The notes under the pieces were generated by a model. That model ran no database searches. It had not been told where the DNA came from and worked only from the letters and a program-made list of their open reading frames with translations. Below, piece by piece: positions 1-6,146 of a DNA stretch of 6,146 nt; position 1 is the first letter of the stretch; every line of letters starts with the position of its first letter. The stretch is from IMG/VR virus record IMGVR_UViG_2617270975_000012, positions 1 through 6,146 of that record; one strand, written 5' to 3'. A program made the position numbers and the translations under genes. Source of the stretch: a virus (Duplodnaviria; Heunggongvirae; Uroviricota; Caudoviricetes).

Positions 1-96
1 AAGGTGCACCTTACTCCGGCTCAGTTATCCATGCTTCTTGAAGGTATCAACTGGAAGCACCCGAAACGAACGGAACGCGCTGGAATCCGCATATAA
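1..96 (+). CDS. tnpB: IS66-family TnpB (orf2), C-terminal fragment; 5' end outside window
   Basis: Frame 1 is open from position 1 and translates KVHLTPAQLSMLLEGINWKHPKRTERAGIRI before TAA at 94..96. It ends 19 bp before the tnpC ATG, matching tnpA-tnpB-tnpC order. Family assignment is from recall of TnpB C-termini, not a search. Confidence 0.55.
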   Translation, partial: KVHLTPAQLSMLLEGINWKHPKRTERAGIRI

Positions 97-115
97 CCCG
101 TTGTAAAGTGAGGAT

Positions 116-1687
116 ATGGACACCTCACTTGCTCATGAGAACGCCCGCCTGCGGGCACTGTTGCAGACGCAACAGGACACCATCCGCCAGATGGCTGAAT
201 ACAACCGCCTGCTCTCACAGCGGGTGGCGGCTTATGCTTCCGAAATCAACCGGCTGAAGGCGCTGGTTGCGAAACTGCAACGTATGCAGTTCGGTAAAAG
301 CTCAGAAAAACTTCGTGCAAAAACCGAACGGCAGATACAGGAAGCACAGGAGCGAATCAGCGCACTTCAGGAAGAAATGGCGGAAACGCTGGGTGAGCAA
401 TATGACCCGGTACTGCCATCCGCCCTGCGCCAGTCTTCAGCCCGTAAACCGTTACCGGCCTCACTTCCCCGTGAAACCCGGGTTATCCGGCCGGAAGAGG
501 AATGCTGTCCTGCCTGTGGTGGTGAACTCAGTTCTCTGGGATGTGATGTGTCAGAGCAACTGGAGCTTATCAGCAGCGCCTTTAAGGTTATCGAAACACA
601 ACGTCCGAAACAGGCCTGTTGCCGGTGCGACCATATCGTGCAGGCACCAGTACCTTCAAAACCCATTGCACGCAGTTATGCCGGAGCGGGGCTTCTGGCC
701 CATGTTGTCACCGGGAAATATGCAGACCATCTGCCGTTATACCGCCAGTCAGAAATATACCGTCGTCAGGGAGTGGAGCTGAGCCGTGCCACACTGGGGC
801 GCTGGACAGGTGCTGTTGCTGAACTGCTGGAGCCGCTGTATGACGTCCTGCGCCAGTATGTGCTGATGCCCGGTAAAGTCCATGCTGATGATATCCCCGT
901 CCCGGTCCAGGAGCCGGGCAGCGGTAAAACCCGGACAGCCCGGCTGTGGGTCTACGTCCGTGATGACCGTAACGCCGGTTCACAGATGCCCCCGGCGGTC
1001 TGGTTCGCGTACAGTCCGGACCGGAAAGGTATCCATCCACAAAATCACCTGGCCGGTTACAGCGGTGTGCTTCAGGCCGATGCTTACGGTGGTTACCGGG
1101 CGTTATACGAATCCGGCAGAATAACGGAAGCCGCGTGTATGGCTCATGCCCGGAGAAAAATCCACGATGTGCATGCAAGAGCGCCCACCTACATCACCAC
1201 GGAAGCCCTGCAGCGTATCGGTGAACTGTATGCCATCGAGGCAGAGGTCCGGGGCTGTTCAGCAGAACAGCGTCTGGCGGCAAGAAAAGCCAGAGCCGCG
1301 CCACTGATGCAGTCACTGTATGACTGGATACAGCAACAGATGAAAACACTGTCGCGTCACTCAGATACGGCAAAAGCGTTCGCATACCTGCTGAAACAGT
1401 GGGATGCACTGAACGTGTACTGCAGTAATGGCTGGGTGGAAATCGACAACAACATCGCAGAGAACGCCTTACGGGGAGTGGCCGTAGGCCGGAAAAACTG
1501 GATGTTCGCGGGTTCCAACAGCGGTGGTGAACATGCGGCGGTGTTGTACTCGCTGATCGGCACATGCCGTCTGAACAATGTGGAGCCAGAAAAGTGGCTG
1601 CGTTACGTCATTGAACATATCCAGGACTGGCCGGCAAACCGGGTACGCGATCTGTTGCCCTGGAAAGTTGATCTGAGCTCTCAGTAA
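116..1687 (+). CDS. tnpC: IS66-family transposase TnpC (orf3), 523 aa
   Basis: Full-length ORF. N-terminal heptad-rich coiled coil/leucine zipper (aa ~8-90), CxxC...CxC zinc-finger-like motif (EECCPACGG...QACCRCDH, aa 130-171), and DDE-type core candidates ([26 protein letters not shown]). First in-frame ATG after a stop at 104..106; GAGG at 110..113. Confidence 0.93.
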
Positions 1688-1690
1688 ATA

Positions 1691-1717
1691 TCAATACGGT
1701 TCTGACGAGTCGCTTAC
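1691..1717 (+). repeat. IS66-family terminal inverted repeat (tnpC-proximal end)
   Basis: Last ~27 bp of the repeated block, directly after the tnpC stop; ends ...CGCTTAC (complement GTAAGCG). Repeat identity stops exactly at 1717. IR length is an estimate. Confidence 0.6.
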
Positions 1718-1723
1718 GGAGGA

Positions 1724-2074
1724 ATGGCAATATCTGCAGGTCGTCTGACACAGATGATAAGTGTTCTGAAGCCGGTGTTAACCCGTAATGCTGCCGGAGA
1801 AATGACGGAAGAATGGGTGTCATGCGGGAAAATTCATGCGGATATCCGTGGCAGGAGCAGCCGGGAGCGGATGCAGTCCGGTGCGGAAATGGCGCAGGCG
1901 GAAATCCGCATCTGGGTGCGCGGTCAGTCCGGCCGGGAAATCACGGCAGCGTCACGACTTCATGTGCTGAGTGGTCCATGGCGTGACCGGATCCTGAACG
2001 TTGTCGGGCTGCCCGTGCCGGATGCGACCGGCGGGCGTCTGGAAATTCTCTGTCGGCTGGGAGGGGAAAAATGA
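1724..2074 (+). CDS. Phage head-tail adaptor / head closure (stopper) protein, Phage_H_T_join-like, 116 aa
   Basis: N-terminal M..AGRL motif, central AQAEIRIWVR block and C-terminal LEILCR are typical of head-tail joining proteins. Size and position, directly upstream of an HK97-gp10-like gene, fit. GGAGG at 1718..1722 is only 1 nt from the ATG; in-frame stop at 1703..1705 prevents upstream extension. Confidence 0.72.
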   Translation: MAISAGRLTQMISVLKPVLTRNAAGEMTEEWVSCGKIHADIRGRSSRERMQSGAEMAQAEIRIWVRGQSGREITAASRLHVLSGPWRDRILNVVGLPVPDATGGRLEILCRLGGEK

Positions 2075-2517
2075 TCGAAACCCTGCTGGATTTTTCGGGG
2101 CTGGAGGACATCAGCCGCGATTTGCAGCTTCTGAGTGGTGCGGAAAATAACCGGGTGCTGCGTGAGGCAACCCGTGCGGGTGCGAATGTGCTGAAAGAAG
2201 AAGTGGTGTCACGGGCACCGGTACGCAGGGGAAAACTGCGCCGCAATGTGGTGGTCCTTTCCCGGCGCTCCCGCGATGGCGGGATGGAATCCGGTGTGCA
2301 TATCCGGGGTGTTAATCCGGACACCGGTAACAGCGATAACACCATGAAGGCGGATAACCCGCGCAATGCTTTCTACTGGCGGTTTGTGGAAATGGGGACC
2401 GTGAATATGCCACCGCACCCGTTTGTGCGCCCGGCATTTGATGTGCGCAGTGAACAGGCGGCACAGGTGGCGATTGCGCGGATGAACCGGGCCATTGATG
2501 AGGTACTGAGACGATGA
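2071..2517 (+). CDS. HK97 gp10-family phage tail component (tail completion / neck protein), 148 aa
   Basis: RAPVRRGKLRR and FVEMGT..MPP.PFVRPAFD motifs match the HK97-gp10 family signature. Start overlaps the upstream stop (ATGA at 2071..2074). Confidence 0.78.
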   Translation: MIETLLDFSGLEDISRDLQLLSGAENNRVLREATRAGANVLKEEVVSRAPVRRGKLRRNVVVLSRRSRDGGMESGVHIRGVNPDTGNSDNTMKADNPRNAFYWRFVEMGTVNMPPHPFVRPAFDVRSEQAAQVAIARMNRAIDEVLRR

Positions 2518-2858
2518 CGGAGGCGGATTTGTATCCTCATCTGGCGCATCTTGCCGGCGGGCAGGTGTACCCGTATGTGGTCCCCCTGCTGGATGGCAGG
2601 CCGTCGGTGGCGCTTCCGTGGGTGGTTTTCAGCCTGATTTCATCGGTGTCTGCGGACGTGATGGGCGGGCAGGCGGAGTCCTCAGTGTCGGTGCAGATCG
2701 ACGTTTATGCCGGGACTGTGACGCAGGCGCGTCAGATACGTCAGGACGCCCGTGAAGCCATAATGCTGCTGGCCCCGGGATCCGTCAGTGAAATGCAGGA
2801 CTATATTCCGGAAAACCGCTGTTACCGTGCAACCCTGGAGTTTCAGGTCACGGTGTGA
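2514..2858 (+). CDS. DUF3168-like phage tail terminator / tail completion protein, 114 aa
   Basis: LYPHL...VYPYVVP...PWVVFSLIS...VQIDVY...AREAI pattern resembles DUF3168 proteins found between gp10-like and major tail genes. ATGA overlap with the upstream gene at 2514..2517. Confidence 0.62.
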   Translation: MTEADLYPHLAHLAGGQVYPYVVPLLDGRPSVALPWVVFSLISSVSADVMGGQAESSVSVQIDVYAGTVTQARQIRQDAREAIMLLAPGSVSEMQDYIPENRCYRATLEFQVTV

Positions 2859-2876
2859 CTTTTTCTTTTTTTCTAC

Positions 2877-2908
2877 AAAACCCATACCCCGCCGCGTGCG
2901 GGTTTTTT
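2877..2908 (+). terminator. Putative intrinsic terminator/attenuator between the tail terminator and major tail protein genes
   Basis: A-tract 2877..2880, GC stem CCCGC (2888..2892) / GCGGG (2898..2902) with 5-nt loop, then TTTTTT at 2903..2908. Preceded by a weaker hairpin GTCAC-GGT-GTGAC (2847..2859) plus a T-rich run (2860..2873). Confidence 0.45.
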
Positions 2909-2914
2909 ATTATC

Positions 2915-2920
2915 AGGAGG
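2915..2920 (+). promoter_or_regulatory. Shine-Dalgarno (AGGAGG) of the major tail protein gene
   Basis: Perfect AGGAGG 4 nt upstream of the ATG at 2925. Confidence 0.6.
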
Positions 2921-2924
2921 CAGA

Positions 2925-3641
2925 ATGTCTGCTTTGTATGAACGCTCACAGCTGACGCAGGTGATGATTTCATCTGCCCCGGCGACTGCTGAAACTATGG
3001 ATAAGGCGGAATATCTGCGCCTGGACTGCACCATCAAGGAAGTCCAGTTCACCGCCGGTCAGAAACAGGATATTGATGTGACCACGCTCTGCTCCACAGA
3101 GCAGGAGAACATCAACGGTCTGGGGGCGTCGTCTGAGATTTCCATGTCGGGTAATTTTTATCTGAATCAGGCCCAGAACGCCCTGCGTGATGCCTATGAC
3201 AATGACGCGTTGTATGCGTTTAAGGTGCTGTTTCCGTCCGGTAAGGGCTTTAAGTTCCTGGCGGAAGTGCGTCAGCACACCTGGTCATCCGGTACCAACG
3301 GCGTGGTGGCAGCAACGTTTTCACTGCGTATGAAAGGCAAACCGGTGTCCTTTGTGGTACCGCTGGCGTTTGTGAAAAATCTGGATAAAACACTTACCGT
3401 GAATACAGGTGCGCTGCTGACAATGTCAGTCAGTGCCAACGGGGGAACGCCGCCGTATAAATACGCCTGGAAGAAGGATGGTCAGCCGGTTGACGGGCAG
3501 ACGACAGACACCTTCAGTAAGCCAGGTGCGCAGTCCGCTGATGCGGGGAAATATACCTGCGTGGTGACCGATTCGGCAGAGAAAGCACAGAGTGTGACGT
3601 CTGTTGAATGCACCGTGACAGTGAGCGCAGCCGCCGGATAA
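2925..3641 (+). CDS. Phage major tail (tube) protein with C-terminal Ig-like domain, 238 aa
   Basis: Position after the adaptor/gp10/terminator genes and before the chaperone pair; strong SD. C-terminal ~85 aa (nt ~3370..3638) has Ig-fold-like features (alternating beta pattern, W, Y.C in GKYTCVVTD), as commonly appended to siphovirus tail tube proteins. Confidence 0.72.
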   Translation: MSALYERSQLTQVMISSAPATAETMDKAEYLRLDCTIKEVQFTAGQKQDIDVTTLCSTEQENINGLGASSEISMSGNFYLNQAQNALRDAYDNDALYAFKVLFPSGKGFKFLAEVRQHTWSSGTNGVVAATFSLRMKGKPVSFVVPLAFVKNLDKTLTVNTGALLTMSVSANGGTPPYKYAWKKDGQPVDGQTTDTFSKPGAQSADAGKYTCVVTDSAEKAQSVTSVECTVTVSAAAG

Positions 3642-3655
3642 GGGGATGGGTCATC

Positions 3656-4030
3656 ATGAAAAAGGATCTGAAAACGCTGGCGCTGGCCAGACTGTCAGGG
3701 TTTCGTCATAAAACGGTGAAGGTGCCGGAATGGGGTAATGTCAGCGTGGTGCTGCGGGAGCCTTCGGCAGAGGCCTGGTATCTGTGGCAGGAAGTGCTCA
3801 ATGGTGATGGAGAGGATGACGATACCCTGTCGGTGGTGGCGAAAACCCGCCGTAACCTGGAAGCGGATGTGACGCTGTTCTGCGATGTCCTGTGTGATAC
3901 TGACCTGCAACGGGTGTTCACTCCGGACGACCGTGAGCAGGTGCTGGCCGTCTATGGTCCGGTACATGCCCGGTTGCTGCGTCAGGCACTGGAACTGATC
4001 GCTGATGCAGAGTCGGCCAGAAAAAAGTAG
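3656..4030 (+). CDS. Tail assembly chaperone (lambda gpG-like), 124 aa
   Basis: Start chosen at ATG 3656 (GGGGA at 3642..3646), not the ORF-track start 3608, which overlaps the major tail gene. Acidic small protein immediately after the major tail gene, ending in a slippery site followed by a -1-frame ORF, the hallmark G/GT arrangement. Confidence 0.7.
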   Translation: MKKDLKTLALARLSGFRHKTVKVPEWGNVSVVLREPSAEAWYLWQEVLNGDGEDDDTLSVVAKTRRNLEADVTLFCDVLCDTDLQRVFTPDDREQVLAVYGPVHARLLRQALELIADAESARKK

Positions 4031-4335
4031 CCCGCCCGGAAATTCGCTTTCTGATGCGACTTGCGCTCCGTCTGGGGCGCACCTTATCCGAACTGCGGCA
4101 CAGCCTGAGTGCGAGCGAGGCGATGATGTGGATGGAGTTTGACAGGGTGTCCCCGCTGGGTGATGAGCGCGGGGATATCCGTAATGCACAGATCGTGAAA
4201 GCGGTTTTCGGGGCACAGGGGATGAATGTTGCACTGAAGGACGCCATGCTCTGCTGGGGCGAGGATGAGGATAAGCCGGAGGTGGATCCGTTTGCGGCGC
4301 TGGAAGACGCGCTGAGCTTTGCAGCACAGTCATGA
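3656..4335 (+). CDS. Tail assembly chaperone G-T fusion via -1 frameshift (join 3656..4027, 4027..4335), about 226 aa
   Basis: The -1 frame after the slippery site is continuous with ORF-track 4054..4335 (MRLALRLGRTLSELRHSL..., gpT-like). Conserved G/GT frameshift arrangement of long-tailed phages. Confidence 0.62.
4021..4027 (+). other. Programmed -1 ribosomal frameshift slippery heptamer A_AAA_AAG
   Basis: Zero-frame codons AGA AAA AAG TAG at 4019..4030. The -1 frame from 4027 reads GTA GCC CGC CCG GAA ATT CGC TTT CTG ATG... with no stop through 4335. Confidence 0.65.
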
Positions 4336-4343
4336 ATGATGAG

Positions 4344-4364
4344 AACCGCTGAGGCGGTTTTTTT
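4344..4364 (+). terminator. Terminator-like hairpin downstream of the T segment
   Basis: Stem AACCGC (4344..4349) / GCGGTT (4354..4359), loop TGAG, T-run 4358..4364. Lies 9 bp after the G-T stop at 4333..4335. Confidence 0.4.
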
Positions 4365-4382
4365 ACGCCCGGAGAAAGGTGA

Positions 4383-4433
4383 ATGGCGACGTTACGTGAA
4401 CTGATTATCAAAATTTCGGCAAATTCACAGTAA
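4383..4433 (+). pseudogene. Truncated 5' end of a probable tail tape-measure gene (16 codons), interrupted by the IS66 terminus
   Basis: GGAGA at 4371..4375, ATG at 4383, MATLRELIIKISANSQ, then in-frame TAA at 4431..4433 supplied by the IS terminus starting at 4430. Identity as tape measure is inferred from position after G/GT only. Confidence 0.4.
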
Positions 4434-4456
4434 GCGACTCGTCAGAACCGTATTGA
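4430..4456 (-). repeat. IS66-family terminal inverted repeat (tnpC-proximal end) of the second copy
   Basis: Mirror of 1691..1717; GTAAGCG at 4430..4436. Confidence 0.6.
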
Positions 4457-4459
4457 TAT

Positions 4460-6031
4460 TTACTGAGAGCTCAGATCAACTTTCCAGGGCAACAGATCGC
4501 GTACCCGGTTTGCCGGCCAGTCCTGGATATGTTCAATGACGTAACGCAGCCACTTTTCTGGCTCCACATTGTTCAGACGGCATGTGCCGATCAGCGAGTA
4601 CAACACCGCCGCATGTTCACCACCGCTGTTGGAACCCGCGAACATCCAGTTTTTCCGGCCTACGGCCACTCCCCGTAAGGCGTTCTCTGCGATGTTGTTG
4701 TCGATTTCCACCCAGCCATTACTGCAGTACACGTTCAGTGCATCCCACTGTTTCAGCAGGTATGCGAACGCTTTTGCCGTATCTGAGTGACGCGACAGTG
4801 TTTTCATCTGTTGCTGTATCCAGTCATACAGTGACTGCATCAGTGGCGCGGCTCTGGCTTTTCTTGCCGCCAGACGCTGTTCTGCTGAACAGCCCCGGAC
4901 CTCTGCCTCGATGGCATACAGTTCACCGATACGCTGCAGGGCTTCCGTGGTGATGTAGGTGGGCGCTCTTGCATGCACATCGTGGATTTTTCTCCGGGCA
5001 TGAGCCATACACGCGGCTTCCGTTATTCTGCCGGATTCGTATAACGCCCGGTAACCACCGTAAGCATCGGCCTGAAGCACACCGCTGTAACCGGCCAGGT
5101 GATTTTGTGGATGGATACCTTTCCGGTCCGGACTGTACGCGAACCAGACCGCCGGGGGCATCTGTGAACCGGCGTTACGGTCATCACGGACGTAGACCCA
5201 CAGCCGGGCTGTCCGGGTTTTACCGCTGCCCGGCTCCTGGACCGGGACGGGGATATCATCAGCATGGACTTTACCGGGCATCAGCACATACTGGCGCAGG
5301 ACGTCATACAGCGGCTCCAGCAGTTCAGCAACAGCACCTGTCCAGCGCCCCAGTGTGGCACGGCTCAGCTCCACTCCCTGACGACGGTATATTTCTGACT
5401 GGCGGTATAACGGCAGATGGTCTGCATATTTCCCGGTGACAACATGGGCCAGAAGCCCCGCTCCGGCATAACTGCGTGCAATGGGTTTTGAAGGTACTGG
5501 TGCCTGCACGATATGGTCGCACCGGCAACAGGCCTGTTTCGGACGTTGTGTTTCGATAACCTTAAAGGCGCTGCTGATAAGCTCCAGTTGCTCTGACACA
5601 TCACATCCCAGAGAACTGAGTTCACCACCACAGGCAGGACAGCATTCCTCTTCCGGCCGGATAACCCGGGTTTCACGGGGAAGTGAGGCCGGTAACGGTT
5701 TACGGGCTGAAGACTGGCGCAGGGCGGATGGCAGTACCGGGTCATATTGCTCACCCAGCGTTTCCGCCATTTCTTCCTGAAGTGCGCTGATTCGCTCCTG
5801 TGCTTCCTGTATCTGCCGTTCGGTTTTTGCACGAAGTTTTTCTGAGCTTTTACCGAACTGCATACGTTGCAGTTTCGCAACCAGCGCCTTCAGCCGGTTG
5901 ATTTCGGAAGCATAAGCCGCCACCCGCTGTGAGAGCAGGCGGTTGTATTCAGCCATCTGGCGGATGGTGTCCTGTTGCGTCTGCAACAGTGCCCGCAGGC
6001 GGGCGTTCTCATGAGCAAGTGAGGTGTCCAT
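4460..6031 (-). CDS. tnpC: IS66-family transposase TnpC (orf3), 523 aa, second copy
   Basis: ORF translation is identical to 116..1687. Confidence 0.93.
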
Positions 6032-6050
6032 ATCCTCACTTTACAACGGG

Positions 6051-6146
6051 TTATATGCGGATTCCAGCGCGTTCCGTTCGTTTCGGGTGCTTCCAGTTGA
6101 TACCTTCAAGAAGCATGGATAACTGAGCCGGAGTAAGGTGCACCTT
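6051..6146 (-). CDS. tnpB: IS66-family TnpB (orf2), C-terminal fragment, second copy; 5' end outside window
   Basis: Mirror of 1..96. Confidence 0.55.
   Translation of the reverse strand, partial: KVHLTPAQLSMLLEGINWKHPKRTERAGIRI

Follow-up and report, generated by a model that had tools for sequence, protein, structure and literature searches.

The question raised by this locus is how the second of two adjacent tail assembly genes of a tailed phage is translated when it lies in a different reading frame from the first and follows it across a gap without any gene of its own. The DNA analyzed, hereafter the window, is 6146 bp long and corresponds to positions 1 to 6,146 of the IMG/VR record IMGVR_UViG_2617270975_000012. 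In it, an open reading frame (ORF) of 124 amino acids (aa) for a G-type tail assembly chaperone (3656-4030, plus strand) is followed in the -1 frame by a 93-aa ORF named ‘tail assembly protein T’ elsewhere (4054-4335, plus strand). An earlier note, made from the letters of the window, had proposed that a -1 frameshift on the heptamer A_AAA_AAG joins both ORFs into a G-T fusion. We assign a probability of roughly 0.9 to the reading that the site is a programmed -1 ribosomal frameshift of an HK97-type G/GT chaperone pair, carried by a Shiga toxin (Stx)-type lambdoid prophage of Escherichia coli. The site is already known, having been predicted twice (GeneTack in 2013, Sharma et al. in 2014) and measured at ~7% in a reporter; the interpretation is correct but ordinary, the G/GT frameshift being textbook recoding.

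The slip site and its predicted 226-aa product

The chaperone ORF ends GCC AGA AAA AAG TAG, just as the earlier note had read it, with AGA at 4019-4021, AAA at 4022-4024 and AAG at 4025-4027. The slippery heptamer A_AAA_AAG (AGA AAA AAG; 4021-4027, plus strand) is therefore in X_XXY_YYZ register with ORF 3656-4030, as read from the sequence, and directly 3' of it stands the zero-frame stop UAG (4028-4030, plus strand) that ends G. Upstream, the last stop of the -1 frame is a TGA (4003-4005, plus strand), which confines a possible shift to 4006-4027, an overlap of 22 nucleotides (nt). From 4006 the -1 frame is open as far as the TGA at 4333-4335, reading ...QKK VARPEIRFL MRLALRLGRT..., in agreement with the claim that it is open from the slippery site through the 93-aa ORF to 4335; it contains no ATG, GTG or TTG before the ATG at 4054. 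The linker VARPEIRFL (4027-4053, plus strand) would be translated only after a shift, the G at 4027 being read a second time (GTA GCC CGC CCG GAA ATT CGC TTT CTG). The predicted fusion comprises 226 aa with the junction ...ESARKK/VARPEIRFL..., and conceptual translation thus returned the very peptide that had been predicted.

There are 6 in-register heptamer positions in the overlap and a heptamer occupies one only, so other shift sites within it were rejected. The chance of finding an in-register A_AAA_AAG in the overlap is ~2e-4, and that of finding any X_XXY_YYZ ~0.03; AAAAAAG occurs twice in the whole window (0.46 expected), a count reached by 14 of 200 shuffles. Across six phage ORFs, in-register heptamers were found at the chance rate (3 of 821 positions against ~4 expected, 0.0049 per position). 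For this reason we rejected the heptamer as evidence in itself, and the weight of the evidence is in its position and in its conservation among homologues.

Both products belong to known families. The G ORF is a full-length match to Pfam PF06222 (Phage_TAC_1, E 1.1e-61) and also matches phrog_344, a tail assembly chaperone, while the T ORF matches PF06223 (Phage_tail_T, the lambda gpT family, E 4.8e-19) and phrog_337; the T segment would form the C-terminal domain of the 226-aa GT fusion. When the conceptual fusion was compared with phrog_14766, a family of 224-aa ‘tail proteins’, it aligned over positions 2-224 of 224 with 289 bits. Such an end-to-end match means that some phage genomes already have a fusion of this type in their annotation. 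The gene order (major tail, G, T, tape measure) is also that of intact phages and prophages.

Support for a shift at this place also comes from a published experiment. For their HK97-like ‘phage tail assembly chaperone’ cluster, Antonov et al. (2013; PMC3711429) assayed two members in E. coli with a GST-MBP reporter and obtained 6% and 7% frameshifting. The 7% value (7% +/- 0.79 in E. coli) belongs to the cassette called ‘Phage_TAC’ (PMC3711429, Suppl. Table S2), and the 6% value to a homologue with a site of the G_GGA_AAG type (PMC3711429). By sequence comparison, positions 4001-4075 of the window are identical to the 75-nt ‘Phage_TAC’ cassette, which ends GTC TGG, and the proposal of a -1 frameshift at this site is thereby borne out by a reporter result for the exact sequence. 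Sharma et al. (2014; PMC4066793) defined a prophage cluster, A_AAA_AAG_25, typified by the ‘tail assembly chaperone’ ECs1801, with 124 aa to the motif and a frameshift product of 226 aa, for which -1 programmed ribosomal frameshifting ‘can be safely inferred’ (PMC4066793). The same work lists the cluster as having no Shine-Dalgarno (SD) element and a predicted hairpin with a ddG per nt of 0.020, under the threshold of 0.09, and cross-references it to GeneTack cluster #10 (PMC4066793).

Conservation of the junction and comparison with related systems

Loci were gathered with an alignment of G homologues, 28 from species-representative genomes and 80 from viral contigs (IMG/VR). A spurious match in Rubrobacteraceae (L033) and a rearranged viral contig (L052) were set aside, and 27 species-level loci were counted. 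In all 27, and in all 78 usable IMG/VR loci, a T-like ORF of 94 to 103 codons lies in the -1 frame, and a slip site ending A_AAG is found at the equivalent place in every usable locus. The heptamer itself, whose conservation the earlier note had suggested looking up, is kept in most of the homologues. At species level, 13/27 loci have A_AAA_AAG with a stop directly behind it and 3/27 the same heptamer with the stop 15-24 nt later; the lambda heptamer G_GGA_AAG appears in 4/27 and the HK97-type CGG_GAA_AAG, in which the heptamer is out of canonical register, in 3/27, while four loci (Klebsiella, Raoultella, Silvania and Pantoea) retain A_AAG and the stop only. A stop immediately 3' of AAG is therefore the majority state (17/27). 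The form of the slip site differs by lineage (loci L003-L032, each with its junction at ~1860-1900), whereas the arrangement of the frames is fixed, and the terminal Lys of G does not vary across the 11 aligned homologues, which reach down to 35% identity. Judging from these alignments, the invariant core of the family is an AAG codon preceded by A, read by tRNA-Lys and often placed directly before a stop.

Two unusual sequences were seen alongside these loci. In the rearranged contig L052 the -1 frame is open for 319 codons past the slip site and diverges from T after ~20 residues, and a database protein of 390 aa (P0011) combines chaperone and tape-measure domains; both point to deletions that fused neighbouring tail genes in some prophage remnants.

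Among named systems, the nearest is the ECs1801/ECs1802 pair of the Sakai prophage Sp9 of E. coli O157:H7, with a G protein 98% identical to that of the window and the same gene order. The junction DNA of ECs1801 is identical to the window over the stretch read, and its products have the same sizes, 124 aa and, after the shift, 226 aa. Sp9 has a full tail module, whereas the window copy is a fragment flanked by insertion sequences (IS) with a truncated tape measure; the site itself is essentially the same in both. The closest studied relative is HK97, whose gp13 is 63% identical to the G protein of the window and has a solved structure (PDB 2OB9). Its T protein, gp14, carries the annotation ‘translated due to a -1 frameshift’, and T lies in the -1 frame in the same gene order as in the window, although in HK97 a moron gene, 15 (product Gp15), is located between gp14 and the tape-measure gene. 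The linker motif is recognizably shared (VSTPGVKFLM in HK97, VARPEIRFLM in the window), but the slip sites are not alike: HK97 reads CGG GAA AAG (GGGAAAAG), with A_AAG alone in canonical register and the zero-frame stop 15 nt further on, whereas the window has the full A_AAA_AAG and then UAG directly. A more distant case is the Burkholderia phage Bcep176, where gp69/gp69' carry a -1 frameshift annotation; its site reads GGA AAA AAG and its G protein is 36% identical to that of the window. The class of -1 frameshifts in the G/GT chaperones of long-tailed phages is attributed to Levin in 1993 and to Xu, Hendrix and Duda in 2004. The claim that the window reproduces this conserved frameshift is upheld by its gene order, by the PF06222/PF06223 and phrog_14766 matches, by the HK97 annotation and by the arrangement conserved among homologues.

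The lambda G/GT pair occupies the same place between the major tail and tape-measure genes and undergoes a low-level -1 shift near the end of G. Its heptamer is G_GGA_AAG where the window has A_AAA_AAG, and it is not known to be directly followed by a stop. The T proteins of lambda and of the window fall in the same Pfam family, PF06223; the G protein of the window belongs to PF06222 and matched no other family in the Pfam scan, the lambda gpG family included. Neither the lambda cluster nor that of the window has a selected stimulatory hairpin, the ddG per nt being 0.020 in both (PMC4066793).

A search for stimulators in the window and its homologues agreed with this picture. The RNA downstream of the heptamer folds no better than shuffled sequences (z-scores of the minimum free energy of -0.74 and +0.63), and RNAalifold applied to 14 diverse junctions returned a consensus of -0.29 kcal/mol with 3 pairs and no covariation, that is, no conserved downstream structure. 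A hairpin that can be drawn at 4063-4080 (GCGCUCC-GUCU-GGGGCGC) was rejected as a stimulator: it is 35 nt away from the heptamer, it encodes the conserved ALRxGR motif, and the 75-nt cassette, which cuts it short, shifts at 7% nonetheless. As for an SD-like element, which in a dnaX-type signal stands ~6-17 nt before the heptamer, the upstream sequence of the window (GATGCAGAGTCGGCCAG) contains no GGAG, GAGG or AGGA, and the sequences upstream of the heptamer vary among homologues without any conserved SD.

These results bear on the description of the heptamer as ‘dnaX-type’ in the earlier note. The dnaX gamma/tau site has the same A_AAA_AAG and the same shift-prone tRNA-Lys, so the description stands. 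The likeness goes no further: dnaX has an upstream SD-like element and a downstream stem-loop, whereas in the window the SD is absent and a stem-loop is absent or not conserved. The dnaX shift occurs at ~50% and gives the shorter product, whereas in the window the product of the shift, at ~7%, is longer than the zero-frame one. Only the heptamer is dnaX-like, and the signal resembles that of lambda G-T in lacking an evident stimulator.

Alternative explanations and the proposed mechanism

G and T could be independent proteins and the heptamer incidental: T would be started at the ATG at 4054, 24 nt beyond the stop of G, through translational coupling or reinitiation. Such an account fits the fact that this ATG is the first start codon of the T ORF, that its Met is conserved in 46 of 48 distinct homologue junctions, and that most records annotate two coding sequences (CDSs). 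In two Providencia loci, however, the Met is replaced by Leu; no SD precedes 4054, nor does a match to AGGAGG longer than 3 nt precede the conserved Met in any of the 48 junctions (3 nt or none); and the -1 frame, closed upstream by the TGA at 4003-4005, offers no earlier start. The linker moreover bears the mark of translation. Over the 48 junctions the mean column entropy at its three -1-frame codon positions is 0.67/0.77/1.30 bits; G (0.75/0.61/1.48) and T (0.74/0.56/1.23) are likewise most variable at the third position. The linker also contains an invariant Pro codon, CCN, free at its third position (1.42 bits), as well as a conserved F-L-M. The supposed gap at 4031-4053, to judge from these substitution patterns, evolves as -1-frame coding sequence, and the suggestion that the frameshift accounts for this gene-less interval is in this way substantiated. 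Because of the codon pattern in the linker, the missing SD and the Met to Leu change in Providencia, production of T solely from its own start is strongly argued against; with T in the -1 frame at all 27 species-level loci and the identical sequence shifting at 7% in a reporter, we regard two separate proteins as very improbable. Just as improbable, in our estimation, is transcriptional slippage, in which RNA polymerase would insert one A in the A6 run (4021-4026) and ordinary translation would then give ...RKKVARPE.... The protein would be identical, so that the junction peptide fits both routes, and the homopolymer of 6 A is longer in some homologues (8 A in the phi467 type, 7 A in the Morganella and Proteus types). 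Nevertheless, efficient slippage by bacterial RNA polymerase has been described for runs of ~9 A or T (PMC5009743); in the reporter system already mentioned, with a different gene, an A7 run gave 10% and longer runs more (PMC3711429). Taking as criterion such a run, or a shorter one with a nascent-RNA hairpin, the 6 A of the window fall below it. Homologues with G_GGA_AAG, CGG_GAA_AAG or GCA_AAG, having only 3-4 A, keep the -1 arrangement, and the G_GGA_AAG cassette shifts at 6%, about as much as the A6 cassette, which points to slippage of tRNA-Lys as the common mechanism; A_AAA_AAG is in addition among the most shift-prone heptamers in E. coli (PMC4066793).

Finally, the split could be an artefact or the mark of a decayed pseudogene: a sequencing error or a mutation would have removed 1 nt from a homopolymer and so broken what was originally one G-T gene. 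Indels are frequent in homopolymers, and a few uninterrupted G-T proteins do exist in the databases (P0001 of 222 aa, P0002 of 225 aa, P0004 of 191 aa and P0101 of 240 aa). Against this, the split form with an identical junction is present in 1,246 of 5,426 complete E. coli genomes and in 92 phage records, and in all divergent homologues, whereas the fused forms are rare (three are single sequences and one is represented by six) and have altered junctions; this explanation can hardly be credited. The uninterrupted ORFs come from metagenome and read-archive assemblies. P0001 lacks the linker VARP, ARKK being joined in frame to EIRFLM, P0004 has one Lys fewer through an indel in the A run, and P0002 passes through a stretch in the third frame; the four could be natural fused variants or homopolymer errors, and we set them aside as rare indel variants.

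Several points weigh against a programmed ribosomal frameshift in the window, or limit what can be said of it. The bare heptamer gives 0.29% in a neutral lacZ context (PMC4066793) as opposed to ~7% here, although the reporters differ, the two values are not directly comparable and the difference may carry no meaning. The 7% was obtained with a 75-nt cassette between reporter genes and not in a phage infection, and the published assay alone does not separate ribosomal from transcriptional slippage. Neither an upstream SD nor a conserved downstream structure was found around the heptamer, and public records (RefSeq/PGAP and most phage GenBank entries) annotate two separate CDSs. The tape-measure gene of the window is moreover destroyed, and this copy can therefore not be credited with a role in tail assembly.

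For an intact copy of the module, we infer the mechanism at the level of the tRNA, the part played in assembly and the ratio of products in a real infection. Under the programmed frameshift most ribosomes on ORF 3656-4030 would stop at the UAG at 4028 and release the 124-aa G protein, while a minority would move back by one base on A_AAA_AAG (4021-4027). There, the only tRNA-Lys of E. coli could re-pair from AAG to AAA and, in the P site, from AAA to AAA, either tandem or P-site slippage being the most likely event. Slipped ribosomes would then read GTA GCC CGC... in the -1 frame up to the TGA at 4335 and produce the 226-aa fusion, whose C-terminal part is lambda-T-like. In lambda, tail assembly needs both G and GT, in a balanced ratio, and virions contain neither (Atkins et al. 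2016, PMC5009743). By analogy with the assembly model given there, many copies of G and a few of GT would coat the tape-measure protein, the G part of GT binding likewise, and the T domain would recruit the major tail subunit; neither G nor GT would remain in the virion.

A more tentative idea concerns the adjacent zero-frame stop. It is possible, although we would not expect it, that the stop in A_AAA_AAG_UAG was selected as part of the signal, in which case the G:GT ratio would depend on release-factor activity. The principle of such ‘shifty stops’ has been recognized since the 1980s. With tRNA-Lys on AAG in the P site and a slowly decoded stop in the A site, the tRNA may slip to AAA; this would explain the direct stops in 17/27 loci, the four lineages with A_AAG and a stop only, and the ~7% of the cassette compared with the 0.29% of the bare heptamer. 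On the other hand, the conserved T of the stop does double duty, being also the middle base of a conserved Val codon when read in the -1 frame; moreover, the reporter systems behind 7% and 0.29% are not directly comparable.

Prophage context of the window and meaning for the module

The phage DNA in the window is a 2.7-kb piece of a tail module (1718-4429) placed between inverted right ends of an IS66-family element. The first end (copy 1, 1-1717, inverted with respect to copy 2) contains a complete 523-aa transposase, as does the second (4430-6146, minus strand), an ISCro1/ISEc8-like right end (Pfam DDE_Tnp_IS66, E 4.5e-103). The two copies match perfectly, position x mirroring 6147-x. One of them adjoins the spacer before the head closure gene; the other, whose end GTAAGCG begins at 4430, lies inside the tape-measure gene and cuts it at ~codon 16. 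Between them are found, in order, the genes for a head closure protein (1724-2074), an HK97-gp10-like protein (2071-2517), a tail completion protein (2514-2858) and the major tail subunit (2925-3641, plus strand), followed by the G and T ORFs and by the first ~16 codons of the tape-measure gene (4383-4429, plus strand), recognized by comparison with an intact prophage (L002). The major tail subunit was identified by its C-terminal immunoglobulin (Ig)-like domain (residues ~150-227, Pfam Ig_3/I-set), by matches to tail-tube families below the cutoff and by its RefSeq name. Its CDS begins 69 nt further upstream in the RefSeq record of phage YYZ-2008 than in the PGAP annotation of bacterial genomes (786 against 717 nt).

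Some hairpins in the spacers of this piece deserve a comment of their own. One at 4341-4366, GAGAACCGC-TGAG-GCGGTTTTT, has 9 pairs and -10.8 kcal/mol and overlaps a run of seven T; lying in the spacer that separates the stop of T (4335) from the start of the tape-measure gene (4383), it resembles an intrinsic terminator within the tail operon. The intact prophage L002 has this hairpin too; it was not listed by the consensus scan. Two further terminator-like hairpins with T runs occur at 2845-2902, in the spacer between the tail completion and major tail genes, and putative terminators are annotated in HK97 at equivalent places around the major tail gene. A T run of the 2845-2902 hairpins, read as its complement on the minus strand (2865-2871), accounts for the second AAAAAAG of the window.

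The phage piece is 99.6% identical to Stx1a-converting phages, and 92 phage records match it at 95% identity or more, those of YYZ-2008, 2851 and other Stx-converting phages among them. As noted above, 1,246 of 5,426 complete E. coli genomes contain the two frames with this very junction, and some complete E. coli genomes have an intact prophage that matches the fragment at 100% identity. Neither of the two junctions between IS and phage DNA, nor the whole IS-phage-IS structure, was found in those 5,426 genomes; one candidate, H96, was rejected as it has a different IS insertion in the tape-measure gene. The perfect symmetry of the contig ends suggests that the assembly entered a repeat from each side; the structure of the window is either a real IS-bounded remnant or a product of such an assembly. 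Head and tail-tip genes are absent from the fragment and the tape-measure gene is truncated, and consequently the window copy cannot build tails. With that gene cut by the IS66-family element and the fragment flanked by IS, we consider the frameshift signal of the window most likely an intact relic and probably idle.

The practical consequence concerns annotation. The module is a very common prophage module of enterohaemorrhagic E. coli, and RefSeq/PGAP as well as most phage GenBank records omit its 226-aa GT product: as ‘tail assembly chaperone’ and ‘tail assembly protein T’ are entered as two separate CDSs, the product is missing from the protein databases. The A_AAG core found across the family, often directly before a stop, could guide the automated prediction of such frameshifts.

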